Shown piece after piece: positions 887-44,929 of a stretch of DNA of 45,440 nt; the stretch's first letter is position 1; each line of letters starts with the position of its first letter. The DNA comes from a virus. The notes beneath the pieces are model-generated. The model was not told where the DNA came from. It made no database searches and saw only the letters and a program-made list of their open reading frames with translations. The stretch lies in IMG/VR virus record IMGVR_UViG_3300028610_001044; one strand, given 5' to 3'. Made by a program: the position numbers and the translations under genes.

Positions 887-1113
887 AATTACTAGGATTA
901 TTAATGATTGTTGGAGGTATTTGTCTCGGTTTATATGTAGGCGGTTACTTGATGCTGGTTGGTGGAGTCATCCAGGTTATTGAGGGAGCCAAGAACGATA
1001 TAGACGCACTCATGATAGCCTGGGGCGTTGGGAAAGTAGTTTTAGCTTCTTTTGTTGGGACAATCACAGCATTTGTTTTAGTCATCCCCGGCATGGCTTT
1101 CCTGAGCAGCTAA
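883..1113 (+). CDS. Small membrane protein (2 predicted TM segments)
   Basis: ATG 883 forms an ATGA overlap with the upstream stop, and GGAGAG lies upstream. The sequence is hydrophobic (LLGLLMIVGGICLGLYVGGYLMLVGG). The longer TTG-862 start was rejected. Confidence 0.7.
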   Translation: MKLLGLLMIVGGICLGLYVGGYLMLVGGVIQVIEGAKNDIDALMIAWGVGKVVLASFVGTITAFVLVIPGMAFLSS

Positions 1114-1898
1114 TGAGCGAAGAACTACTTGAACTAGAGCTGGAACAGGAGTCATACAAGAATGACCCGGCAACATACAAGGTGTTCCATGAAAGATATA
1201 TTTGGTGTGCTATCTGTGGAAAGCCAGAGATACAGGCGCACCACATAGTGTTCGGTATCGGCCAACGTGACACCACCATGTCGAATCTCTGCCCCTTATG
1301 TGTGGAGTGCCACATGAGAGCGCATGGGCAGGTTGTTGCGGGTAAAACCCCCATTAAGATTAAAGAGGATGAGATGGGCGCTGGGGGTGCATGGGTTTTA
1401 TATCCAAACAACCCCGAGGATGCTATGTTTCTGTCCTTAAAGCCACACCACACATCTGAGGACGACGGAAAGAAAGCACACGACCTACATACAGCAATAA
1501 TAAGGATGAAAGACCAGAGGGAAAGATTAAACCGACTACTGGGGAGTGCGTACAAGGATATGAGGGATAGTGAATTATATAAGGCGTATGCCCCAACGAT
1601 GCAGTCTTATTTTGCCACACCGGAGATAGCCGAATACGGGAGTCTAGGGTTTGACTTGATTGAAATAGCAGAACAACTAGAGAAGTTTGGGATTGATGAT
1701 ACTGACCTGGACACACATAAACTACACAAGGTGTTGATGGGGGCAAAAGACAGAGATGAAGCACTACGCTGGATAGACCAGGCACAAGGACTAAGCCACA
1801 CTGATCTTAATGATGGTCTTGCTGAAAACGGAATGATGGAAGAAACAAAGTATATGAAGAAAAAGAGGGAGAAAGACAATGAAGATAAAAACATTTAA
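1113..1898 (+). CDS. HNH endonuclease-domain protein
   Basis: Motif CAICGK...AHHIVF...NLCPLCVECHMRAH, a Cys4 plus His-Asn-His type ββα-Me signature. TAATG coupling to the upstream gene. Confidence 0.8.
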   Translation: MSEELLELELEQESYKNDPATYKVFHERYIWCAICGKPEIQAHHIVFGIGQRDTTMSNLCPLCVECHMRAHGQVVAGKTPIKIKEDEMGAGGAWVLYPNNPEDAMFLSLKPHHTSEDDGKKAHDLHTAIIRMKDQRERLNRLLGSAYKDMRDSELYKAYAPTMQSYFATPEIAEYGSLGFDLIEIAEQLEKFGIDDTDLDTHKLHKVLMGAKDRDEALRWIDQAQGLSHTDLNDGLAENGMMEETKYMKKKREKDNEDKNI

Positions 1899-2058
1899 GC
1901 TGCACTGGCTTCACGGGAAGACAGAAACCGTAGAGGGCTATGACATTGCCGATGCTTGTCGCCGGGCCGGGATAGGAAATGGAGCACTGCCAGCTCTAGA
2001 CTACCACGAAGAAGTATCTGCCGAGGTTGTGAGGGATGAAGAGCAGCCGAGTCTCTAA
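1879..2058 (+). CDS. Hypothetical 59-aa protein
   Basis: ATG follows AAGAGGGAGAAAGACA. Open frame found by manual translation; it lies below the ORF-track cutoff. Confidence 0.45.
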   Translation: MKIKTFKLHWLHGKTETVEGYDIADACRRAGIGNGALPALDYHEEVSAEVVRDEEQPSL

Positions 2059-2167
2059 TGCGCTCTTCATTAGAGGACAAAGAAACATAGATCAGACCTA
2101 ATAATAGCCTTATCAGAAGCAGGACTAATAAAGGAACCCAAGTGGTTGACCAAACGTAAGGAGAATA

Positions 2168-2308
2168 ATGGATGAAATAGACGACGGCAGAGACAAAGAG
2201 CCGGTATGTAAGAAGTGTCAGGGTAGGGGCTGGTATTGGATACAAAACCCCAATGGATTCTATGCGACTGACAGGATAAGAGTCGATTGTGAATGTGAGG
2301 GAAGATGA
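2168..2308 (+). CDS. 46-aa mini-protein with DnaJ-type CxxCxGxG zinc-finger motif
   Basis: AAGGAGAATA precedes the ATG. Motifs CKKCQGRGW ... CEC. ATGA overlap with the next gene at 2305. Confidence 0.45.
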   Translation: MDEIDDGRDKEPVCKKCQGRGWYWIQNPNGFYATDRIRVDCECEGR

Positions 2309-2496
2309 GTGATAAATGTTGCTTCATTGGTTGCAAGAAGTTAGCGGATTTTGAGGTTTATTCTAAAAGTGGAGATACCCTGGCCTGCTCAGGACACTTA
2401 GTTGAGCTTCTTTGTGATGACGAAGAACACACTATTTGCCGTGTGCCAGAGTTTTTAGATGAGGAAGACGCAGAAACAGTAGTGGAGGATGAGTAA
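2305..2496 (+). CDS. Hypothetical Cys-rich protein with acidic tail
   Basis: 63-aa ORF coupled to both neighbours. C-terminal DDEEH...LDEEDAETVVEDE. Confidence 0.6.
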   Translation: MSDKCCFIGCKKLADFEVYSKSGDTLACSGHLVELLCDDEEHTICRVPEFLDEEDAETVVEDE

Positions 2497-3111
2497 ATGA
2501 CAACCGTTAAAGATGAATTAGAAAAGCGAGAAGTCCTCATGCACCATCGACCACCGACAATTTGTGAGATTTGCAGCGAGAATTATAAAGACAGTCCTTG
2601 TGAGTGGCAGATATTCGAGAAGATTCATGCCTGCGCTCATCAAAAGGCTGACTCAAAGATGCAACTTGCACGCCTCCGAAGCTGGCTGAACGACATACAG
2701 CATGGCTTATTGGTAGGCGAAGAAGCTGACGATCAATTAGAGAACCCATTTACAACAATATTTGAAGCACTAGACCGCAAAGATGAACTGGAAGAATTTG
2801 AAGAAGTCGCTGGCCGTCTAAGTGATGTTAATGCCAATCTTTTAGAAGAACTCACAACCGCCAAACAACGCATAGCGGAGCTGGAGCCAGCTTTATTCGC
2901 AGCAAAAGAGGCTCGGGATACCTGGAATCGAATCGCAGAAGAAAGAGAACAAGACCTCACCAAATCACGCCAACAAGTAGAGCTCAATGAACGAATACTG
3001 GCTAAAGTCGAGCCTATTATTGAGAGTCGCGGCCGTACTTTAGTTGATATTGAAGCTGAGGTTCTTGGCGAATGGCTAGACAAACAATCCGACGACCAAG
3101 AGGGGGCATGA
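2497..3111 (+). CDS. Hypothetical coiled-coil protein
   Basis: 204-aa ORF starting 1 nt after the upstream TAA. The C-terminal half is rich in heptad-like charged residues. Confidence 0.7.
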   Translation: MTTVKDELEKREVLMHHRPPTICEICSENYKDSPCEWQIFEKIHACAHQKADSKMQLARLRSWLNDIQHGLLVGEEADDQLENPFTTIFEALDRKDELEEFEEVAGRLSDVNANLLEELTTAKQRIAELEPALFAAKEARDTWNRIAEEREQDLTKSRQQVELNERILAKVEPIIESRGRTLVDIEAEVLGEWLDKQSDDQEGA

Positions 3112-3212
3112 TGGAGTATTCATCAACAGGTTTTTGTTGGCATTGTGGCTGCTTCTTAACAGAGGCTGCGATTAAATCACATAAATGTAACCGTTGTGGA
3201 GCCCCTGTATGA
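3108..3212 (+). CDS. 34-aa zinc-ribbon mini-protein
   Basis: ATGATG overlaps the upstream TGA. Motif CWHC...CNRC. Confidence 0.4.
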   Translation: MMEYSSTGFCWHCGCFLTEAAIKSHKCNRCGAPV

Positions 3213-3253: not shown

Positions 3254-3508
3254 TTGAAAAGATATAAAGCACACCCAGCAAGCGATCTCCTGAAAGGAGA
3301 TGAACAAAGACAAAGGGATATTATAATACCAGATGGATATGTACCAGAGGTAAAGTGGCCCGGTCATCTTTTATGTATAACACCAGGCTGTAACAACATT
3401 AAAAGACAAAACAGAGCAGGATGGAAAAATACCTGTGAGGATTGTTCAGAAGACCCAGAGAAAAGAATAGCCGCTAAAGCGATAAGGGAAGCGAGGAGGA
3501 AGAAATGA
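3254..3508 (+). CDS. Hypothetical basic protein
   Basis: TTG start 3 nt after GAGGAG. 84-aa ORF coupled to the next gene (ATGA). Confidence 0.6.
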   Translation: MKRYKAHPASDLLKGDEQRQRDIIIPDGYVPEVKWPGHLLCITPGCNNIKRQNRAGWKNTCEDCSEDPEKRIAAKAIREARRKK

Positions 3509-3840: not shown

Positions 3841-3909
3841 ATCACAAACGAAGTTTGTGGACAACAATAAATACCACGCCACCCCAACAACAGTAGACGG
3901 CATAAGGTT

Positions 3910-4217: not shown

Positions 4218-4234
4218 GTCAAACGTAGTTTGAC
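4218..4234. repeat. Palindrome family member P1: GTCAAAC-GTA-GTTTGAC
   Basis: Perfect 7+7 inverted repeat with a 3-nt spacer, 17 nt upstream of ATG 4252. It shares 23 of 26 nt with P4 (41664..41689, reverse complement). Confidence 0.9.
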
Positions 4235-4251: not shown

Positions 4252-4578
4252 ATGCTTAACAAACAAATAGAACGGATAAAGAACAACGGACACATATTTT
4301 GGACGTTCTGGGGGATATGCGCTCTTGGCTGGTTAGTCTATGCGTGGTCAGTAATCCTCCCCTTGGCGGCTGAGTTGCAATCTGAACCAACGGTTCAGGA
4401 CAACCTCTCAATCATTGAAGCTATCACTACAGACGAAGTAAAGTGGAAAACAATAACAGTAGAGACATTCAATCCAAAAGAAGCATCAGACGACTTCACC
4501 GACAGTGGATTAACCAAGAAAGTAACAACAGAGTTTTATTTCGATCAGAGAGTCCCGGCTAAAAAGGAGAGAAAATGA
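4252..4578 (+). CDS. Membrane protein (1 TM)
   Basis: AAGGAGGACAG precedes the ATG. TM segment FWTFWGICALGWLVYAWSVILPL. Confidence 0.7.
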   Translation: MLNKQIERIKNNGHIFWTFWGICALGWLVYAWSVILPLAAELQSEPTVQDNLSIIEAITTDEVKWKTITVETFNPKEASDDFTDSGLTKKVTTEFYFDQRVPAKKERK

Positions 4579-5422: not shown

Positions 5423-5439
5423 CCGTAACGCAGTTACGG
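5423..5439. terminator. Hairpin CCGTAAC-GCA-GTTACGG between convergent transcription units (possible bidirectional terminator or processing site)
   Basis: Perfect 7-bp stem with a 3-nt loop, 25 nt after the stop at 5398. No U-tract follows, and it is followed by GGACAAAAG as in the P1/P4 flank. Confidence 0.35.
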
Positions 5440-6705: not shown

Positions 6706-6901
6706 CTTTACCTCCCGTTGGTTGCCTACCCCATAGTGTACACATGGTAGGAGTAGAAGTCAATAAAACAAGGTTTAAGGGGTTGAGCAGGGAGAACACC
6801 ACAGAGGGAGAGGGCAGTCGCAACCACGGGTTGCGGGGTAACCCTTAAATATGGTATACAGCGTAGGTAGTATTTACACTTATCCCCAGGAGACAAAGCC
6901 C

Positions 6902-8809: not shown

Positions 8810-8972
8810 TCCTCAAGCTGCGCTTGAGAAGAGCATGGATTCGTTCTATGAATATCTGACCACTAAACGGCCAGAGTTTATGCTTGAGATGGCATTAACC
8901 GGGCGTGTTGTGTTCAGCCCACAAGAGTTACTGGACGACTACTTAGCTGACGGAGAGGGTGGCGACTTATGA
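8802..8972 (+). CDS. Hypothetical 56-aa protein
   Basis: AAGGAG lies 7 nt upstream. Manual translation is open to TGA 8970-72. Confidence 0.5.
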   Translation: MISPQAALEKSMDSFYEYLTTKRPEFMLEMALTGRVVFSPQELLDDYLADGEGGDL

Positions 8973-19064: not shown

Positions 19065-19553
19065 ATGGCGGTAGCCGATTTCGGTCGCCTGACCGCAATA
19101 ACGCGGTCAAATATTCTTCCCAACGTATCTGATGCAATCGTACAGAACTCGCCAGGACTTAATCGTTTCTTGAACAAAGCGAAACGAGAAGACGGCGGCA
19201 CGACACTCAATAAGATCGTAAGGTTCAAGAACAGTACTCAGGGCGGCGGTTACGCTGGCCTTGAAACGCTTTCTGCGGCCCTACAGACGACTCGTACCCA
19301 AGCCCAGTTTGATTGGCGGCAGGTATACGAGCCGATTGCGGTGTCTAACATTGAGGTTGCAAAGAACGGTGGGATTCAAAAGGTCGAGGACTTAGTTGCC
19401 CTCGACATGGAGGACGCTAAATTGTCCTTGGAAGAAAAGTTCGGTGGCTATCTTTACAGTGATGGTTCAGGGGACTCTAACAAAGTTCCCGAAGGACTTG
19501 TAAATGTAGCGGATAAAAAGTTGTCCCTATTGGGCTTACGACTTGCGGCTTAA
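19065..19553 (+). CDS. Major capsid protein, N-terminal part (exon 1 plus read-through into the insertion; proposed exon end 19514)
   Basis: Strong SD (TAGGAGGAATTACT). It lies after the scaffold gene. The ORF stops 39 nt into the HNH-bearing insertion, and its C-terminal partner lies at 20512..21051. Confidence 0.7.
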   Translation: MAVADFGRLTAITRSNILPNVSDAIVQNSPGLNRFLNKAKREDGGTTLNKIVRFKNSTQGGGYAGLETLSAALQTTRTQAQFDWRQVYEPIAVSNIEVAKNGGIQKVEDLVALDMEDAKLSLEEKFGGYLYSDGSGDSNKVPEGLVNVADKKLSLLGLRLAA

Positions 19554-20535
19554 GGCAAATTGCTGGTAATATGTTTTTATTGTGGCAAAACGCCTGACTA
19601 GAAAAGACGAGGCATTTAAGCATAGCGCTGCTTACATCGAGTGGCGACACAATGTTTATGCCCGAGATGGCTGGGCATGTAAGATATGTAGTCATAAAGG
19701 TCAGGACATAGAGGCGCATCACATATATCCATTTCGTGACTATCCTGAGTTAAGGGTAGATGTTGGAAATGGAATTACGCTATGTGTGGCCTGTCACAGA
19801 ACATTATTTGGCAAAGAACGACGAGTCGCAGAAGAATTGTTAGGCTTAATAGACAATGGCGTGAATTCGGTGGAACTCCTACCAGGTAGTGCTGGGGACA
19901 ATACCGAGCCAAGCCAGGTTGGAAACGACTTGGAAGGTGTAACGACTAGAGGTCGAGTCTTCGACATAGAAAGGTTCAGGAAAAAAGCAGTTCGTTGTAA
20001 GGGTTGCGGGAAAACCATACATAGATATTTTTATGAATGGGAGAAAGCTAAGAAAGGGTTTGTCTGTAGTCCCGCTTGTAAGTCCAAGTGGTTTAGGTCA
20101 AAGGACTTCAAGGGGAAGAACAGTGGGAACTACAAATCAAGAGAAAGACAGAAATGCCTTTATTGTGGTAAGTTCACAAGCACGCCCTCAGATCGCAACC
20201 GAGACAAGAAGTATTGCAACAATTCATGTCAGCTCAAATACGAGTTAAAGCATGGATTAAGGGTGAACGAGATTACTAAGAAAGCTGGTATGACGCATTG
20301 CCAGAAAGGACACCCGTTCGATGAGAAAAATACCTATAACACAGTAGATCGTTATGGGAAAAAACATCGTCAGTGCAAGGCTTGTAAGAAACAACGAGAG
20401 GCTAAATACCGAGCCAAGAAACGTAAAGACAGTAACACCTCCACGAGCGCGCTACCCGTAAAGGGATGATATAGTCTGGACAACGTAGTAATACGTTGAA
20501 GTAGAGGATAAAGAGCCTACTACGGTAACAGTACG
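19515..20535 (+). mobile_element. Putative self-splicing (group I-like) intron carrying an HNH homing endonuclease; boundaries are proposed, not proven
   Basis: It interrupts the capsid reading frame. U19514 can pair with G19523 in a GGAU/GUCC P1-like helix, and G20535 precedes the in-frame resumption. A CAACGTA-GTAA-TACGTTG GNRA hairpin lies at 20481..20498. Confidence 0.5.
19582..20469 (+). CDS. HNH homing endonuclease with C-terminal multi-CxxC DNA-binding region
   Basis: EWRHNVYARDGWACKICSH...IEAHHIYPF...GNGITLCVACHRTLF, followed by five CxxC/CxxxC pairs. Confidence 0.85.
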   Translation: MAKRLTRKDEAFKHSAAYIEWRHNVYARDGWACKICSHKGQDIEAHHIYPFRDYPELRVDVGNGITLCVACHRTLFGKERRVAEELLGLIDNGVNSVELLPGSAGDNTEPSQVGNDLEGVTTRGRVFDIERFRKKAVRCKGCGKTIHRYFYEWEKAKKGFVCSPACKSKWFRSKDFKGKNSGNYKSRERQKCLYCGKFTSTPSDRNRDKKYCNNSCQLKYELKHGLRVNEITKKAGMTHCQKGHPFDEKNTYNTVDRYGKKHRQCKACKKQREAKYRAKKRKDSNTSTSALPVKG

Positions 20536-20553
20536 GACGGTACAAATGACAAT

Positions 20554-21051
20554 GTGTACGGTGGGATTAACCGTACCAACAACACTTGGTGGAAGGGAAG
20601 TTACGTTGCCTCTGTAGGCGCGTTTGCGGTATCCATTCTCTCAACTCGTCTTGACGATATTGAGGACAATGGTAAAGCGGTAGACCTCCACCTTACAACT
20701 CTGGCTATGTGGACAGCTTACGAGCAGACACTTCACCCACAGGCGAGATTTGAGTTTAGTTCAGGTGGCTTCCCGAAAGCGGATGGCGGCTTTGATAAGT
20801 TGACCTACCGTGGAGCGGAAGTTCTGAAAGACCCAAGATGTACGGCTGGTTTCTGGTATATGCTCAATATGAACACCATTGATTATTACTACCTCAACCA
20901 CCCGACATTTAAGACCGACAACAGGGGCTTTACTTTATGGCCGCTGCATGAACCGACTTCCCAGGACGGCAAGATTGGATTCTTGCTCTGGTATGGCGCG
21001 TTCATCACTACTAATCCTCGCCACAATGGGGTTATTAGGGGGTTGACGTAA
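20554..21051 (+). CDS. Major capsid protein, C-terminal part (frame open from 20512; proposed exon start 20536)
   Basis: No SD lies before the first possible start (GTG 20554). The sequence YGGINRTNNTWWKG... continues a capsid-like protein, and the decoration genes follow immediately. Confidence 0.7.
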   Translation: MYGGINRTNNTWWKGSYVASVGAFAVSILSTRLDDIEDNGKAVDLHLTTLAMWTAYEQTLHPQARFEFSSGGFPKADGGFDKLTYRGAEVLKDPRCTAGFWYMLNMNTIDYYYLNHPTFKTDNRGFTLWPLHEPTSQDGKIGFLLWYGAFITTNPRHNGVIRGLT

Positions 21052-38564: not shown

Positions 38565-39200
38565 GTGGGACAAATGAGGAGAATAACTAAGGCGATTGTC
38601 CATTATAGCGCATCTAAGGACGTTCCCGCCTCCACCATCAGAAGATGGCATTTAAACCGAGGCTTTAAAGATTGCGGATATCACAAAGTCATCAGAAGAG
38701 ATGGTTCTGTTGAATTAGGTAGACCCGAATCAGAGATCGGCGCACACACTAAAGGATTTAACAAAGAATCTCTAGGAGTTGTCCTAACCGGAAGTAATGA
38801 CGAACCCTGGTATGCCACGGACGCTCAATACCGTAGTCTTAATAGGGTGTTGGAAGATTGGATAGCCAAGTACGGGATTATGACGACACAGATATTCTTT
38901 CATAAGGAACTTAACGCTACTTCATGTCCGGGTAGATTAGATAAGAAAAGAATACTGGCCGCATTAGAAAGGGAGCCGATGTATCAAAGAGGACGAAGTA
39001 TTAGATGGCCCAACGTACCAAGTGGAGACAAAATAGTAGTTGGTAATCCACACCCAAGCAAGCGCATCAAGGTTAAGATAAGAAATGGTGGAGTAACAGA
39101 TACTCAGTATCTACGACCAGAAACCTCCACTACGATCACAGCTAAGGGTGGGTACTTAAAGTGTCGCTCCCTGGCTGTTATGGATTCTGTTTATAGTTAA
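38565..39200 (+). CDS. N-acetylmuramoyl-L-alanine amidase (Amidase_2/PGRP, T7-lysozyme-like) endolysin with C-terminal extension
   Basis: AIVHYSAS...WH...RGF.DCGYH.VIRRDG.VE.GRP...GAH.KGFN..SLGV...ATSCPG. The start may instead be ATG 38574. Confidence 0.9.
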   Translation: MGQMRRITKAIVHYSASKDVPASTIRRWHLNRGFKDCGYHKVIRRDGSVELGRPESEIGAHTKGFNKESLGVVLTGSNDEPWYATDAQYRSLNRVLEDWIAKYGIMTTQIFFHKELNATSCPGRLDKKRILAALEREPMYQRGRSIRWPNVPSGDKIVVGNPHPSKRIKVKIRNGGVTDTQYLRPETSTTITAKGGYLKCRSLAVMDSVYS

Positions 39201-39391
39201 TCCTCAAACGCAGTTTGAGAAGAACGTCTACACATTGCTCCGTCACATATTGTTGGTGGCCCCTGTTCACCGCTACATTCTGCCGTATGTGGATGAGGGT
39301 TACGATGAGAACAGTCGTTGACCTCCCATCCACAAATAGGGCTTGCCTCGTTACACTTTACTATAGCCCCTAGCTCTACTGCGGAAATCAT
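39197..39391 (-). CDS. Cys-rich 64-aa protein
   Basis: ATGA-coupled to the upstream gene, with 7 Cys. The last codons (SSQTAFED) are encoded by palindrome P2. Confidence 0.6.
   Translation of the reverse strand: MISAVELGAIVKCNEASPICGWEVNDCSHRNPHPHTAECSGEQGPPTICDGAMCRRSSQTAFED
39203..39219. repeat. Palindrome family member P2: CTCAAAC-GCA-GTTTGAG
   Basis: Perfect 7+7 arms. It lies at the convergence point of the endolysin (+) and the minus-strand operon. Confidence 0.9.
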
Positions 39392-39627
39392 TTGTCCTCC
39401 TTAATATACCAAGTTGCTCCGCCATCACATACCGACACCATGCAACTATCACAATCTTTAGGCTTATCGCATAGATGCTTGTACCCTGGCCTGCATTCAC
39501 CAGACATTTCGTCACAAGGCTCAAGGTCTTCTAGCTCACAGCCACACTCTCCATGAGGATTGAGTAAACCACCGTAGTTGTTCTCAATTAGATGTGTTCG
39601 GACAATCTCGTAGACAGTAGCGTTCAT
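39388..39627 (-). CDS. Cys-rich 79-aa protein (GECGCELEDLEPC...C.PGY motif)
   Basis: GAGGAG SD and ATGA coupling. 9 Cys. Confidence 0.7.
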   Translation of the reverse strand: MNATVYEIVRTHLIENNYGGLLNPHGECGCELEDLEPCDEMSGECRPGYKHLCDKPKDCDSCMVSVCDGGATWYIKEDK

Positions 39628-39860
39628 GTTAGCTCCTCTCTTAGTTGGAAGTCTGATTTGCAGTTAAGGGTATATTCCTCAACCCAATCGTTAGTTGCAG
39701 TACAACCAGTTATAAGCGCCCCTTCATGTACCGCTGTTATCTCTAGGTGTTTACAAACAAAACAACACTTCTTTATGGTTACGGTGTCAGCCTGTTTTTT
39801 GGGTAGCTTCCTTAGTTCTTCTATTCCCAGCGTACTACCTATGCGTTTTTCTTCACTCAT
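39624..39860 (-). CDS. Hypothetical 78-aa protein (CCFVC...C...C)
   Basis: ATG 39860 lies 5 nt after GGGAGGAG and overlaps the upstream stop by 8 nt. Confidence 0.65.
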   Translation of the reverse strand: MSEEKRIGSTLGIEELRKLPKKQADTVTIKKCCFVCKHLEITAVHEGALITGCTATNDWVEEYTLNCKSDFQLREELT

Positions 39861-40116
39861 TCGCTCTCCTCCCAAAGTATTCCCTATACCGTTTATTGTT
39901 GTCCTTCTTCTGCTTATCAGTTAGGGTTGGGCCTCTTTCTTCCCTTTTCTCTTTTGCTCTGATATTGCGTTGGGTCTTAGCCCTCTCGTGTGATTCGGGG
40001 TCTACTATCCTACGGATATATGATCTACTCTTACCGTACTTCTCTGATACTTTAGATAGAGAGCCTAGTTCTATGTAGCTTTTCTTTATGTCCTCAAACT
40101 CCGTTTGAGAGGTCAT
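39853..40116 (-). CDS. Small basic helix-turn-helix protein
   Basis: LSKVSEKYGKSRSYIRRIV is HTH-like, with a Lys/Arg-rich tail. ATGA-coupled to the rtcB stop. Confidence 0.65.
   Translation of the reverse strand: MTSQTEFEDIKKSYIELGSLSKVSEKYGKSRSYIRRIVDPESHERAKTQRNIRAKEKREERGPTLTDKQKKDNNKRYREYFGRRANE
40093..40109. repeat. Palindrome family member P3: CTCAAAC-TCC-GTTTGAG
   Basis: Perfect 7+7 arms and the same extended flanks as P2 (TCCTCAAAC...GTTTGAGA). It covers codons 3-8 of the gene just downstream of rtcB. Confidence 0.9.
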
Positions 40117-41258
40117 CCTTTAATCACCGCTAGTGGGGTCAATTCATACTCAACATCAACAAGGTCTGTTTGGTTGTCCATCACTGTCTCAATTTTCTTG
40201 TATGCCCCCGGCGCTTCGTCTAAGTCTTGAACACCCCTCACCGAATGAATTACCCCTAAGTCATCCAACCTCTTTGTTTCGTCCTCTAAGTTAAGTTCCC
40301 GTTGTGCTTGTTTTCTCCCCATCCTACGCCCAGCCCCATGAGAACATGACTTGAACGCCTCTGGATGCCCCTTCCCTTTGACAATATAACTAGAGCTACC
40401 CTGTGACCCAGGGATAATCCCAAGTTGACCCTCGTAGGCTTTCGTAGCGCCTTTGCGGTGAACCATTACGTTTCTACCATAGTGGTTCTCCATAGCAGCG
40501 TAGTTGTGGGCTATATTGATTAGTTCGTTTAGCGGGGTAGTAGCCATAATGTCTAGAACCTTGTCCATCATGTGTCTGCGGCTGGCTAAGGCGAAGTCCA
40601 CACAGTATTGCATCTCTGCCATGTAGAGCTTCCCTTCTTTGCTGTCCATCGGCAGGAACGCTAGCTGCCAGTTCTTCGGGACTTGAGAATAGTATTGTGC
40701 GTTTACCTCGATAGCCAGCTTGTTATAAGTATCAGCAACTTGTTTCCCTAAGTTCCTAGAACCGGAATGAATCATCACCCATATATGATTGTCTTGGTCT
40801 TTCTGTATTTCGATAAAGTGGTTGCCGCCACCTAAAGTTCCTAAAGACTTCTGTGCGTTAGAATATTCTCTGTGGACTATAGGCAAATCAAAACCAGCTC
40901 CACCACTCGGCATCCCAACCTGATTCTTGCTGTGCTTATTAAACCCCACCGGGACTGCTTGTCGTATCTCGCTCATTATCTTCTTGAGCTTTTCTGTCGG
41001 TAGTTCCATCTCACCTAAATCAACCGCACACATACCACAGCCTATGTCTACGCCTACTGCGTTAGGCACGACCACCCCCTGAGTCGCCATCACCCCACCG
41101 ATGGGCATACCGTAGCCCTGGTGGGCGTCAGGCATGATGGCTATGTGTTTGAAAATGAATGGTAAGTTGGCAAGGTGGTTCGCTTGGTCTAACGCCCCAT
41201 CCTCAATGTCCTCCAACCACATCTTAATCGGCAACTTCTCTGTAGCTACTACTTTCAT
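40113..41258 (-). CDS. rtcB: RNA 3'-phosphate/5'-OH ligase RtcB
   Basis: Full-length RtcB signatures are present: MPDAHQGYGMPIGGV, GVDIGCGM, GGGNHFIE, HSGSRNLG, NIAHNY and SCSHGAGR. Confidence 0.95.
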   Translation of the reverse strand: MKVVATEKLPIKMWLEDIEDGALDQANHLANLPFIFKHIAIMPDAHQGYGMPIGGVMATQGVVVPNAVGVDIGCGMCAVDLGEMELPTEKLKKIMSEIRQAVPVGFNKHSKNQVGMPSGGAGFDLPIVHREYSNAQKSLGTLGGGNHFIEIQKDQDNHIWVMIHSGSRNLGKQVADTYNKLAIEVNAQYYSQVPKNWQLAFLPMDSKEGKLYMAEMQYCVDFALASRRHMMDKVLDIMATTPLNELINIAHNYAAMENHYGRNVMVHRKGATKAYEGQLGIIPGSQGSSSYIVKGKGHPEAFKSCSHGAGRRMGRKQAQRELNLEDETKRLDDLGVIHSVRGVQDLDEAPGAYKKIETVMDNQTDLVDVEYELTPLAVIKG

Positions 41259-41290
41259 GTTCTTCCTCCTTAAATCGGTTGCCTAATCAT

Positions 41291-41319
41291 ATGGTAGCAG
41301 GTATAGGATTGCTTGTCAA
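41291..41319 (-). promoter_or_regulatory. Sigma70-like promoter for rtcB: TTGACA-17 nt-TACCAT (minus strand)
   Basis: Hexamers were read on the reverse complement, about 30 nt upstream of the rtcB SD (AAGGAGGAAGAAC). Confidence 0.5.
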
Positions 41320-41371
41320 GTAGTTCTATTAAAGAGATGCGGCTAAGGGGATCGTTATGTTTATCTTGTAA

Positions 41372-41638
41372 TTATTCTTTACTAATGACAATGGTCTGGG
41401 CTCTAGCTTCCCAATCAGTGTCGCAACAGCTTGAGTAGAGGTATCCCCCACCACAGTCTCTATCGTCAGACCACTCAAGGAACTCTTTACACTCGGGACA
41501 ACGGGTACTAAAAAGTATTGTGTCATAAGTAGCCATCAACCCCTTAGCATCCATCTCTTCTCGCTTCTGAGCTATATTAATAGCAATACCATCAAAGATT
41601 GTTATGTGTGTGTCTTTATCATATTTCCAATTACTCAT
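41372..41638 (-). CDS. Hypothetical 88-aa Cys-containing protein
   Basis: ATG 41638 lies 5 nt after GAGAGGAG; the track TTG start at 41677 was rejected. Motif CPEC...C...CC. Confidence 0.65.
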   Translation of the reverse strand: MSNWKYDKDTHITIFDGIAINIAQKREEMDAKGLMATYDTILFSTRCPECKEFLEWSDDRDCGGGYLYSSCCDTDWEARAQTIVISKE

Positions 41639-41672
41639 CTCTACTCCTCTCAAGTGTAGGTTTCTTTTGGTC

Positions 41673-41689
41673 GTCAAACAAAGTTTGAC
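41673..41689. repeat. Palindrome family member P4: GTCAAAC-AAA-GTTTGAC
   Basis: Perfect 7+7 arms. It sits in the divergent region between the minus-strand operon and the ORF-free plus-strand unit. The flank 41664..41679 is the reverse complement of 4228..4243. Confidence 0.9.
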
Positions 41690-41729: not shown

Positions 41730-42104
41730 TTAGACTAGCAACCCCAATGGTTTGATGGGCAGGGGAATCCCTCCCATGTAGGAAAGGACACAACCCCGTA
41801 CGGATGACGGTTGGGTTGGTTATTGCACTTGGATGGACTCACGGCCTAGCTTTACGTCCCAGATTACAAGTCTTTTGTGCGCACCCTCTTGCCGAAGCAA
41901 CTAGAACTGTTTTTTATCATCGTGAATTGTCTCTGGCTCTAACCCAGTTATACCGCTTGTTAAACGGGCAAGTCGTGTTCTTGCAACGGTACAGCATGGC
42001 TGCTATACTATCCTCACGATATTAAGCTAGGGTCATTGTAGAGTACCTCCCAGTGTTTTGCAAGCCCGCCAGAAACTCCCCGGCCCTCGCTGGGGTTTTT
42101 CTTT
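41730..42104 (+). ncRNA. Candidate ~375-nt non-coding RNA (class unknown)
   Basis: This stretch has no SD-preceded ORF in a genome that is otherwise densely coding. AT-rich promoter-like hexamers lie at 41685..41727, an intrinsic terminator lies at 42078..42104, and there are several local hairpins. Confidence 0.3.
42078..42104 (+). terminator. Rho-independent terminator CCCCGGC-CCTC-GCTGGGG + TTTTTCTTT
   Basis: 7-bp GC-rich stem (one G-U pair), a tetraloop and a T-tract, all read directly. Confidence 0.65.
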
Positions 42105-42148
42105 CCCCCACCCGCAACCAAGATTGCAACACCATAAACCATGATTAG

Positions 42149-42177: not shown

Positions 42178-42349
42178 ACGGATATGGCAACCAACGGAAG
42201 GACAACTATACCCCCGGCCCTGTCCTTACTTCTTGTTGATTGCCTGATCGTAAGAGGGTGGAGCGCAAGCGACACCAACAGGGCAGGGTCGGGACTTGAT
42301 TTAGGGTTAGGTTGTTGTCCTCAATCTACGATTGAGAGGAGAAAAGAAC

Positions 42350-42603: not shown

Positions 42604-43539
42604 ATGAGTAGAATACACAGAAGACGCATGACCGCAGAGGAAGTAGTAGGGGTTCGTATGTTCTGTGGAGCTAATCCCCACATGGGGGACACGAAGGTAG
42701 GGAAAGTCTTTAACATTGATAAGGCAACCGTGTGGAGGATTCGTAAAGGGCAGGGAGCTAAGACCTCGATGACTAAATCAGAAGCGGGGCGGTTAGGTCG
42801 ATTGGCGAAGCAGGCCAAGAAAGAGCAAGAGTTCCCACAGACAGCCGGAAGACCCCTGACCGATGCTCTCGTTGAGTCCCTGGAACCGGCAGCTAAAGTC
42901 TATGAGGTGCGCTGCTCTAAGCTAACTGGATTTATGTTGCGGGTACAGCCCGGAGGCGTAAAAACCTATTATGTTGAGTATAAGCGGGGTAAGCGGGAGA
43001 AGCTTGGGCGCTCTGACATTCTTGCCGCAGACGAAGCCAGAGCCAAGGCCCGTGAGACTATCAGGGTGAAAGGGAAGTACCCGGTCACGCTAGAGGCCAA
43101 GAGAGAAGCAGTAGAGACACTGGTGCGCCCCAAAGAGGAGAAAGACGATCTCTTTGCTCTCATCGGTCAGGACTACTACTCAGCCCTTGAGGATGCAGTT
43201 AAGACCAGGGACGAAGAAATCAGGCTGTTGGGTGTTGATAATACCCATCTCCTTACGGCCAATGCGGACTTGGCCCAAGAGAGCCACAAACGGGGAGATG
43301 CACTCAAGACAATAGCTACCGAGCTAAAGTTGGGTGAAGATATTATTGCTGCCCAGAAGGACGAGATACTAAAACTGGAAGAAGAGAGAGATGCGGCCCT
43401 AGCGGAGAACAAGGAACTACAGAACACCCACAACAGCATCCTTTCATCGGCTATGGACAGACTAAGAGGCAGAGCGGCCAGTGTTCTGCGTGAAGAAGAA
43501 GTAGATAAGATGATGAGGCGCCCGCAGGAAAGACCATGA
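42604..43539 (+). CDS. DNA-binding regulator: N-terminal HTH, then integrase Arm-type domain (DUF4102-like), then coiled coil; no recombinase catalytic domain
   Basis: VGKVFNIDKATVWRIRKG is HTH-like. LTDALVESLEPAAKVYEVRCSKLTGFMLRVQPGGVKTYYVEYKRGKREKLG...DEARAKA matches the P4-type integrase N-terminal pattern. The C-terminal ~130 aa are heptad-rich. Confidence 0.7.
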   Translation: MSRIHRRRMTAEEVVGVRMFCGANPHMGDTKVGKVFNIDKATVWRIRKGQGAKTSMTKSEAGRLGRLAKQAKKEQEFPQTAGRPLTDALVESLEPAAKVYEVRCSKLTGFMLRVQPGGVKTYYVEYKRGKREKLGRSDILAADEARAKARETIRVKGKYPVTLEAKREAVETLVRPKEEKDDLFALIGQDYYSALEDAVKTRDEEIRLLGVDNTHLLTANADLAQESHKRGDALKTIATELKLGEDIIAAQKDEILKLEEERDAALAENKELQNTHNSILSSAMDRLRGRAASVLREEEVDKMMRRPQERP

Positions 43540-43822: not shown

Positions 43823-44063
43823 CGGATGGTTTCGCAAGGCAGTTAAGCAGTTCTTCACGTTTGATGAGGGGTTGGGATGGCAGGTCGTCGGAATAGCGAT
43901 AGGGGTGGCCTGGGCACGCGTGAGGCCTAATATATCCATTACAGATGCGGTTATTATAGCGTTTATTGGGTTTGGCATCCTCGTCTATTGTCGAAGCAAA
44001 AAGCTTAGAGCCACCAGCGATAACGAAGTTATCGGGACAAAACCATTTAAGGAGGAAGAATGA
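43815..44063 (+). CDS. Small membrane protein
   Basis: 82-aa ORF with GGGAGGACAAGG upstream and 2 hydrophobic segments. Confidence 0.65.
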   Translation: MVDGWFRKAVKQFFTFDEGLGWQVVGIAIGVAWARVRPNISITDAVIIAFIGFGILVYCRSKKLRATSDNEVIGTKPFKEEE

Positions 44064-44692: not shown

Positions 44693-44929
44693 ATGGAAAA
44701 GCCCTTGTCAACGGAGTTGACGACCAAAAAAGACATGACTGTAAGTGAAGCAGGCCGTAAGGGAGGTAACACCACTAAAGAGAAGTATGGTTCTGATTAC
44801 TACAAGGAGATAGGAAAGAAAGGCGGGGACAAAACCAACAAAGTACATGGAACACCCCACTACGAGAAGATAGGACGTATAGGCGGTCAATCGAAAGGAA
44901 GAAATGAATTATCCAAAGCTAACGATTAA
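44693..44929 (+). CDS. KGG-repeat general-stress-protein homolog (GsiB/YciG-like hydrophilin)
   Basis: Three repeats: SEAGRKGGNTT / YYKEIGKKGGDKT / HYEKIGRIGGQSKG. They match the (F)Y.EIG.KGG stress-induced repeat. Confidence 0.75.
   Translation: MEKPLSTELTTKKDMTVSEAGRKGGNTTKEKYGSDYYKEIGKKGGDKTNKVHGTPHYEKIGRIGGQSKGRNELSKAND

Follow-up and report, generated by a model that had tools for sequence, protein, structure and literature searches.

A family of tailed 17-nt palindromes marks early gene borders in an uncultivated rtcB-carrying phage

Small hairpins that lie just past stop codons in polycistronic units, such as the intercistronic C(UUCG)G hairpins of phage T4 and the REP-type palindromes, stabilise the mRNA upstream of them. 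Hairpins are also found in the N4-type promoters, which include the early promoters of N4 and the early and middle promoters of LUZ7. These promoters combine a stem of 5-7 bp with a GNA-type 3-nt loop closed by C-G, are present in several copies in the early region, and have conserved bases beside a stem that is variable but always paired (PMC4496689, PMC9163698, PMC13037366). Triloops of the C-GNA-G kind are a hallmark of the N4 hairpin promoters and of the G4/RSF1010 priming signals (PMC13037366, PMC4496689). In T4-type phages, the PeSL elements are short repeated stem-loop motifs located between the small variable genes of hyperplastic early regions, and are possible recombination joints (PMC2839356, PMC4122927). 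Here we describe a family of short tailed hairpins in a 45,440-nt viral sequence (IMG/VR record IMGVR_UViG_3300028610_001044, hereafter the window). Copies of the element punctuate a minus-strand block of six genes, named here cys88, rtcB, hth87, cys78, cys79 and cys64, of which rtcB encodes an RNA ligase. Our best reading of the region is of a leftward-transcribed accessory early block that holds a known kind of phage RNA-repair gene and is punctuated by a phage-wide structured element.

The ends of the window share a 144-nt repeat, which gives a circular assembly of 45,296 bp, and its source is an uncultivated 45.3-kb tailed phage with an SU10-type adaptor. A scan of this genome finds 12 perfect palindromes with a 7-bp stem and a 3-nt loop, and the copy at 44706 brings the family to 13 (Table 1). 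In no perfect copy does pairing extend beyond 7 bp. An alignment of the copies reveals conservation in just one of the two flanks, as a GAC(A/C)A-rich tail such as GACCAAAAG. The family is confined to the early third of the genome, from 39.2 kb through the junction of the circle to 8.8 kb, and has no member in the structural and late region between 9 and 39 kb. Copies other than P1-P4 are named by their first position. Five sister pairs have flanks in common: P1 and P4, P2 and 8812, P3 and 42320, 5423 and 44018, and 3843 and 4382. An initial annotation of the minus-strand block had placed palindromes P2, P3 and P4 there, and their coordinates are confirmed. Its proposal that a palindrome is imposed on coding sequence at the nucleic-acid level is likewise supported. 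The palindromes are not specific to this operon as it had supposed, since nine of the 13 family members lie outside the block. A possible fourteenth, variant copy at 2054-2074 on the plus strand combines the 7-bp stem with a longer, 7-nt loop (TCTAATG c gctct t CATTAGA), overlaps a stop codon, and is followed by GGACAAAGAAAC.

The core TCAAAC-N3-GTTTGA occurs exactly four times (at 4219, 39204, 40094 and 41674), compared with 0.13 occurrences expected. Perfect 7-3-7 palindromes were assessed against 300 first-order Markov shuffles, which contained a mean of 2.6 and a maximum of 9, against 12 observed. A GAC tail on the 3' side is present in 9 of the 12 (0.10 expected) and a GNA loop on one strand also in 9 (0.27 expected), eight of these loops being closed by C-G. 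Tail and loop occur together on the same strand in seven copies, for which the expectation is 0.003. In 227 kb of other phage loci, used as a control, much looser criteria yielded only approximately 7 hits. Searches for the element elsewhere gave no hits in IMG/VR with the pattern CAAACNNNGTTTGNNGACMAAAAG, and 14 single-copy, chance-like hits in JGI metagenomes with the pattern TCAAACGNAGTTTGASGAC, none of them a multi-copy carrier.

The stems vary in sequence while remaining paired. All seven stem positions show double substitutions among the copies, always in both arms, although the figure of 100% pairing is circular in that the copies were found as palindromes. Sisters with shared flanks also differ by compensated changes, as in 5423 (CCGTAAC/GTTACGG) and 44018 (CGATAAC/GTTATCG), and the same is true of P2 and 8812, P3 and 42320, and 3843 and 4382. 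Allowing one mismatch in the search brought up no tailed copy whose change lacked its partner on the other arm. Variation is concentrated at five of the stem positions, A5 and C7 being nearly constant in both half-sites. We also considered G-T wobble members as a sign of selection at the RNA level and rejected them as such: they are not enriched among one-mismatch palindromes, and the sole tailed wobble is the outer pair of 44706. P2 and P3 are indeed translated in the same frame, giving SSQTAFED and TSQTEFED, as the initial annotation had stressed. This coincidence carries little weight, because one of the three frames contains TGA and the shared frame would arise by chance about one time in two.

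We tentatively interpret the element as transcribed stem-loop punctuation that acts on early transcripts through stability, processing or translational coupling, and give this reading a probability of roughly 45%. It is favoured by the position of the copies at cistron borders, their match to the direction of transcription, their restriction to early genes, and the A-rich tail that leads into ribosome-binding sites. With the tail taken as the 3' side, orientation matches local gene direction in 11 of the 12 oriented copies, the exception being 8812. Copies 3843, 4218 (P1), 8812 and 39203 (P2, relative to the plus-strand amidase stop) start 2 nt past a stop codon, and 40093 (P3) starts 3 nt past the rtcB stop. 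By our own estimate, given approximately 50 genes in approximately 15 kb, the chance expectation for such stop-adjacent starts is <0.1. The tail runs into a ribosome-binding site at 4218, 41673 and 44018. P3 and 8812 are alike in that overlapping stop and start codons are followed by the hairpin, in which the downstream protein has its first codons. When 60-nt contexts are folded as RNA the hairpins are retained, and the fold around P3 reaches -12.2 kcal/mol with a z score of -2.4. At the amidase/cys64 junction there is no canonical terminator to close either convergent transcript, and P2 is the only structure present.

Under this RNA-level reading, the element would be transcribed into polycistronic early mRNAs and would form a stem-loop at cistron junctions. 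The stem-loop could shield the 3' end of the cistron before it, or set the site at which the transcript is processed within the A-rich tail. At P3 and 8812, located just past overlapping stop and start codons, it may make downstream initiation dependent on ribosomes that terminate upstream, and P2 would close both convergent transcripts. Repeated copies could possibly also serve as joints for cassette exchange. Two other identities were considered and rejected. The hairpins are not intrinsic terminators, as they have no T-run, their tails are A-rich, and the scan reports no family member in the sense orientation. Nor are they sigma-70 promoters: the TTGAC-like 3' arm is not followed by a -10 element at 16-18 nt.

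Several observations weigh against a role in RNA. Among 91 stem pairs only one is G-T (the outermost pair of 44706), and stem length is fixed at 7 bp. C-GNA-G triloops mark unusually stable DNA mini-hairpins, not stable RNA hairpins (PMC13037366), and this loop chemistry favours a structure at the DNA level. As RNA, the hairpins are weak (about -6 to -8 kcal/mol). Copy 8812 faces the opposite way to its operon, and at least three copies lie inside open reading frames (ORFs). The element is also absent from the available parts of three related phages (L013-L015, whose terminases are 77-84% identical to that of the window phage in amino acid sequence), including the only related early region, that of L014 (terminase 77% identical). 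Confinement of the element, so far, to one phage limits both confidence in the reading and its reach. Finally, every functional step assigned to the hairpins is inferred.

A DNA-hairpin role is a serious rival, which we consider unlikely on balance. Extruded or single-stranded mini-hairpins would act as start sites for a polymerase or primase, in the manner of N4-type promoters or G4/RSF1010-type signals, with synthesis beginning in or next to the GAC tail. The 7-bp stem, the 3-nt loop and the C-GNA-G triloops common among the copies all suit such a role, and copies fit the rules for extrusion of hairpins from supercoiled DNA at N4 early promoters, which require a 5-7 bp stem and a 3-nt GGA or GAA loop (PMC4496689, PMC13037366). 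In LUZ7 there are nine early promoters of this type, and hairpins are found as well in its middle promoters, which are attributed to the heterodimeric RNAPII of the phage (PMC9163698). The Watson-Crick stems of fixed length and the conserved, asymmetric flank point the same way. The complement of the tail reads 5'-(T/G)GTC, which we take to be the recognition core of T7-type primases. Were replication to proceed bidirectionally from the divergent region at about 42.5 kb, all tail-bearing strands except that of 8812 would be lagging-strand templates; GC skew tracks gene orientation only and does not discriminate between replication and transcription models. The geometry is, however, the opposite of that in N4, where the GNA hairpin is on the template strand and the start on its 5' side (PMC4496689): in the window the sense strand carries both the GNA loop and the flank, the latter 3' of the hairpin. 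The larger ORFs scanned, several of which match nothing, include no recognisable primase, helicase or DNA polymerase, and no RNA polymerase, whether of the virion, T7-like or any other kind. Placement is also unlike that of N4-type promoters, with many copies 2-3 nt past stops or inside ORFs, and P3, 44706 and 8812 downstream of start codons. The main early operon has no plus-oriented copy ahead of its first gene, and a second minus-strand block is counted as having no copy in front of it, the tailless 6819 lying in the divergent region there. A bolder form of the idea seems distinctly improbable to us: the 13 hairpins would be the DNA mini-hairpin initiation signals of a second, independent hairpin-promoter or priming system, in a small phage that lacks an N4-like virion RNA polymerase, and the enzyme that reads them would be either recruited from the host or a polymerase or primase that has escaped recognition. 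In a variant that is still more speculative, hairpin RNA would be cut by an endoribonuclease that leaves cyclic-phosphate and 5'-OH ends, which the phage RtcB would rejoin.

The hairpins might instead be mainly evolutionary joints or selfish palindromic repeats of the PeSL or REP kind, which enable swaps of cassettes (including rtcB) and have little regulatory role. Copies do bracket sets of genes: 41673, cys88-rtcB, 40093, hth87 to cys64 and 39203 follow one another; 3843 and 4218 enclose a VRR-NUC gene; and 44018 and 44706 enclose two genes. The five sister pairs with common flanks, the high variability of the early region relative to L014, and the mobility of rtcB and cys79 among phages fit this view, as do the inverted loops of P2 and 8812, which share flanks and look as expected after arm-to-arm exchange. 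PeSLs act in this way in T4-type phages (PMC2839356, PMC4122927). The relatives compared were 99.9%-identical copies and a distant one that lacks the motif. Against the idea, no transposase, RAYT or integrase catalytic domain is found among the ORFs scanned, 17-26 nt is short for homologous recombination, and the GNA loops and strict 7-bp stem are left unexplained. As the main function of the hairpins we regard joints as doubtful, and the idea is compatible with the RNA-level reading rather than exclusive of it. Slightly more doubtful still is that the palindromes are operators for a dimeric phage protein, either hth87 or the HTH/Arm protein encoded at 42604-43539 (HTH, helix-turn-helix), which would tune or shut off early transcription in the manner of mycobacteriophage stoperators. 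A 7-3-7 site of 17 bp is the classic size of a lambdoid operator, and the size of the window element fits. The nearly invariant A5 and C7 of the half-sites, the HTH-like gene directly at P3 and the limitation of copies to the early region are further points of agreement. Operator half-sites normally drift independently, however, whereas the arms here always change together and the other five positions vary freely; the GNA loop bias and asymmetric GAC tail are unexpected for a symmetric dimer site, and the copies are not clustered at promoter-like sites.

None of the described systems matches the family completely. No sigma-70-type promoter adjoins the window hairpins, as it does in PeSLs, and the window elements are much shorter (17 + ~9 nt). 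In contrast to the T4 and REP hairpins, they have GNA triloops, which are stable in DNA and not notably so in RNA, AT-rich stems that are weak as RNA, and a conserved 3' GAC tail. A REP/RAYT or IS200-type origin finds no counterpart in the ORFs scanned, which contain no HUH/Y1 transposase domain. Because its shape is N4-like and its placement PeSL- or T4-like, yet it departs from each in defining features, we class the family as repeated stem-loop punctuation of phage early regions.

Table 1. Coordinates of the hairpin copies and of the features of the minus-strand block, with tRNA genes at other rtcB loci.
Feature	Position	Strand	Description
P2	39203-39219	-	CTCAAAC-tgc-GTTTGAG + GAT; convergent junction, 2 nt past plus-strand amidase stop, within cys64 C-terminus
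P3	40093-40109	-	CTCAAAC-gga-GTTTGAG + GAC; 3 nt past rtcB stop, 7 nt past hth87 ATG
P4	41673-41689	-	GTCAAAC-ttt-GTTTGAC + GACCAAAAG; 34 nt upstream of cys88 ATG
42320 copy	42320-42336	-	CTCAATC-gta-GATTGAG + GACAAC; in 0.9-kb gene-free stretch upstream of minus-strand block
P1	4218-4234	+	GTCAAAC-gta-GTTTGAC + GACCAAAAG; begins 2 nt past stop, ends 17 nt before next ATG
3843 copy	3843-3859	+	CACAAAC-gaa-GTTTGTG + GACAAC; 2 nt past stop codon
3285 copy	3285-3301	+	ATCTCCT-gaa-AGGAGAT + GAACAAAG; most divergent, membership uncertain
4382 copy	4382-4398	+	CTGAACC-aac-GGTTCAG + GACAAC; inside ORF 4252-4578
5423 copy	5423-5439	+	CCGTAAC-gca-GTTACGG + GGACAAAAG; second convergent junction, where second minus-strand block ends
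6819 copy	6819-6835	no orientation	CGCAACC-acg-GGTTGCG, no GAC tail; divergent intergenic region before second minus-strand block
8812 copy	8812-8828	tail on -	CTCAAGC-gca-GCTTGAG + GAC; 2 nt past plus-strand stop, 10 nt past next ATG; only copy against local genes
44018 copy	44018-44034	+	CGATAAC-gaa-GTTATCG + GGACAAAAC; 25 nt upstream of ATG
44706 copy	44706-44722	+	(T)GTCAAC-gga-GTTGAC(G) + ACCAAAAAAG; P1/P4-like, one A-T pair lost from both arms, outermost pair T-G
cys88	41372-41638	-	88-aa ORF, CPEC...C...CC; ATG after GAGGAG; gene call in two independent assemblies
rtcB	40113-41258	-	381-aa RNA 3'-phosphate/5'-OH ligase; Pfam, PHROG, 1uc2 alignment
hth87	39853-40116	-	87 aa, HTH-like, basic helical tail; ATGA overlap with rtcB stop
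cys78	39624-39860	-	78-aa ORF, CCxxC...C...C; 8-nt ATGAGTGA overlap with hth87
cys79	39388-39627	-	79 aa, ECGCxxxDLxPCx6CxPGYK; ATGA overlap with cys78
cys64	39197-39391	-	64-aa ORF, 6 Cys; ATGA overlap with cys79; last codons from hairpin P2
Sigma-70-like promoter match	41319-41291	-	TTGACA-17-TACCAT with TG extension, upstream of rtcB; 10/12 positions in consensus scan; consensus match only
EGFOA-like small RNA (RF02955)	41822-41927	-	Full-length, sub-threshold: 33.5 bits against gathering score 37.7, E 4e-4 to 2e-3 (4e-4 in 1 kb)
tRNA genes after rtcB (other loci)	L001 6155-6230; L009 1607-1680; L017 3425-3500	one on opposite strand	

By comparison with known families, rtcB is the one gene of known kind in the minus-strand block. 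Its product matches Pfam PF01139 with an E-value of 1e-107 (361.5 bits against a cut-off of 27) and phrog_1075 with 2e-124, covering residues 5-381. Alignment with Pyrococcus horikoshii RtcB (1uc2) shows that the motifs MPDAHQGYG, DIGCG, GGGNHF, MIHSGSR, AHNY and SHGAGR are retained. We take the corresponding RtcB motifs MPDAH, DIGCG, GNHF, HSGSR, AHN and SHGAGR to contain the metal ligands and the guanylylated (GMP) histidine. The earlier description of a full-length RtcB with intact-looking catalytic motifs is thus borne out. Judging from its family, the enzyme would reseal RNAs, most plausibly tRNAs, that host or competitor ribonucleases have cut to 2',3'-cyclic-phosphate and 5'-OH ends. 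No RNA-repair partners (RtcA, Pnkp/Hen1 or Rsr/Y RNA) are seen in the window phage.

The window rtcB was compared with 11 other phage loci, comprising nine from IMG/VR (50-65% identical), an 84% homologue (L017) and a 71% homologue (L019). L017 holds the closest RtcB homologue in a collection of 5.8 billion proteins, and L018 is a second, 1.2-kb contig with the same protein. For the IMG/VR loci, up to 5-10 kb of DNA was inspected on each side of rtcB, several contigs being shorter. In 3 of the 11 loci a tRNA gene (Met, Pro and Pro) lies 0-4 nt past the rtcB stop, once on the opposite strand, and in the window this spot is occupied by P3. The proximity of phage rtcB genes to tRNA genes has already been described (PMC7881722). 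Known phage RtcBs, such as those of Proteus phage Privateer, C. difficile phiCD211-like phages and Erythrobacter phage vB_EliS-L02, are of the same family, and have the same catalytic motifs and the same status as accessory genes (PMC7881722). The window phage differs from them in having no tRNA gene in its genome, whereas other phage rtcB genes often abut one. In locus L008 (an IMG/VR contig, 997-3140), rtcB is interrupted: about 1 kb separates the stretches that encode residues 1-113 and 125-381. An intein or intron is the likely cause, and NCBIfam includes models of intein-containing RtcB.

The six genes of the block, with their ATGA and 8-nt overlaps and a GGAG-type ribosome-binding site at every start, are present as first described, and the small ORFs downstream of rtcB are translationally chained to it. 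Read in the direction of transcription, the layout is 42320, an EGFOA-like RNA, P4, cys88-rtcB, P3, hth87-cys78-cys79-cys64 and P2. The TTGACA-17-TACCAT sequence reported upstream of rtcB is recovered by a scan, as a consensus match only. The translations contain five cysteines in cys88, five in cys78, eight in cys79 and six in cys64. In the JGI copy of the genome (L011), a C-to-A change at window position 39638 shortens cys78 from 78 to 74 amino acids.

The initial annotation had combined rtcB, the HTH protein and the Cys-rich proteins into a single RNA-repair counter-defence module with the palindromes as its private cis signals. In favour of this are the close translational coupling of the genes, their position in one of just two minus-strand blocks, and Cys patterns that would be compatible with zinc binding. 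Conservation argues the other way. Relatives of hth87, cys78, cys79, cys64 and cys88 are found at 0 of the 11 other rtcB loci, including the 84%-identical one, so the small ORFs are not conserved beside rtcB, an outcome that the initial annotation had itself named as counting against its module. All four other contexts of the cys79 family that we examined lack rtcB; they are strings of small phage ORFs beside RusA, helicase, DUF5131 or cytidylyltransferase genes. A cys78 homologue is encoded at 4542-4814 in L014, on the main gene strand of the plus-strand early region of that related phage (phmmer E 2e-5, with shared CC-x2-C and DFQL+EL). None of the small block proteins is matched in PADLOC or NCBIfam, and the hairpins, as described above, lie mostly outside the block. 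We consider the module very improbable. An RNA-repair role is reasonable for RtcB itself, given that phage rtcB loci adjoin tRNA genes; the dedicated accessory module is what falls away. On the loci compared, the small ORFs are not evolutionarily linked to rtcB, and rtcB and cys79 appear clearly mobile among phages. Because the small genes are absent from the 11 rtcB loci and have relatives elsewhere without rtcB, they probably belong to a shuffled pool of ordinary early-region genes and are not RtcB cofactors. On the other side of the argument, the small proteins could still depend functionally on RtcB in this phage, as missing co-conservation is no proof to the contrary.

Of these proteins, cys79 belongs to a large, uncurated phage family. 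An exhaustive HMMER/phmmer search finds at least 1,512 cluster representatives at E<=1e-3, the clusters being formed at 50% identity. Residues G20, C28, C30, C38 and C45 are invariant in 34 sequences, and the family shares an N-terminal helix followed by ECGC-x7-C-x6-C-PGYK. It has no Pfam or PHROGs model. The AlphaFold (AF2) model of cys79 has a pLDDT of 81 and no fold match in the PDB, and its sole match in BFVD is one uncharacterised phage protein. No homologue of cys64 is present in any of the loci compared, and cys88 has no family match in Pfam, PHROGs, PADLOC or NCBIfam. For hth87, a single-sequence AF2 model (pLDDT 85) has helices at 4-17, 20-27 and 31-38. Its best Foldseek match is the HTH of IstA transposase, with 39 aligned columns, a root-mean-square deviation of 1.5 and a probability of 0.97, but an E-value of 0.64; the Pfam profile Sigma70_r4 is matched at E 0.017, below the family cut-off. 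The proposed HTH identity is plausible, but these fold and profile matches are weak.

The EGFOA-like match sits in the 0.9-kb gene-free stretch upstream of cys88 and rtcB, on the same strand. It resembles EGFOA (RF02955) in matching over the full length, in the conserved GUAAAGCUAG and CUAGU blocks, and in lying in a large gene-free region (bioRxiv 10.64898/2026.07.01.735769). It differs in falling below the Rfam gathering cut-off and in being located in a phage, beside rtcB. Trimers and dimers of EGFOA RNAs have recently been demonstrated. A promoter-like sequence, TTGCAA-17-TACAAT, is present just upstream of the match at 42063-42035. On the plus strand, the interval 41981-42105 contains a promoter-like TTGCAA-17-TATACT (with TG) and, approximately 70 nt further on, the only clean terminator-like hairpin with a T-run in the region (42078-42105). 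The interval may encode a small plus-strand RNA of approximately 90 nt, antisense to the minus-strand promoter.

The same genome is present at 99.9-100% identity in three public assemblies (ENA ERZ27251120, JGI 3300009788 and Logan SRR5210996). These show only 11 differences, and no single-nucleotide polymorphism falls within any hairpin. Family searches identify a large terminase, portal, split major head protein, SU10-type adaptor and Amidase_2 endolysin. The genome contains no Rfam match above threshold. There is no close cultured phage, the terminase being at most 26% identical to that of any cultured phage, and a DNA search for close relatives found only short rtcB matches in cultured phages. 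The plus strand encodes almost the whole gene set, apart from the block described above (41638 to 39197) and the second, small minus-strand block (6705 to 5684). The latter has five small ORFs with strong ribosome-binding sites, and ends at 5473-5452 in a canonical, terminator-like hairpin with a T-run, which on the opposite strand is read as the GGACAAAAG tail of hairpin 5423. L014 also has a minus-strand block, but one made up of other small ORFs, which are zinc-ribbon-like. In the window phage the main early operon opens with a gene (42604-43539, plus strand) for a 311-aa protein, in which an HTH-like segment at the N-terminus is combined with an integrase Arm-type DNA-binding domain (PF13356) and a long coiled coil. 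It has no recombinase catalytic domain, and a search of the 5.8 billion proteins retrieved only the protein itself. The major head gene is split: an HNH endonuclease gene (19582-20469) separates its N-terminal part (19065-19553) from its C-terminal part (20554-21051). The head gene of relative L015 is contiguous, window position 19514 joining 20536, which identifies an intron-like or homing insertion of about 1 kb in the window capsid gene; Rfam calls no group I intron there.

For the phage RNA ligases, the window rtcB adds one more case, from a known family and in a known setting, and its small neighbour genes should not be annotated as RtcB cofactors. The cys79 family is a widespread group of phage proteins (>1,500 clusters, four invariant cysteines) that is so far undescribed and has no Pfam entry or known fold. 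The hairpin family is compact, sharply defined and far beyond chance, and lies mostly at gene boundaries of the early region. If the RNA-level reading is true, it would show in a clean natural case how polycistronic early messages are divided up by a small phage. If the hairpins act as DNA, hairpin recognition in the style of N4 would be present in an unrelated phage lineage as well.

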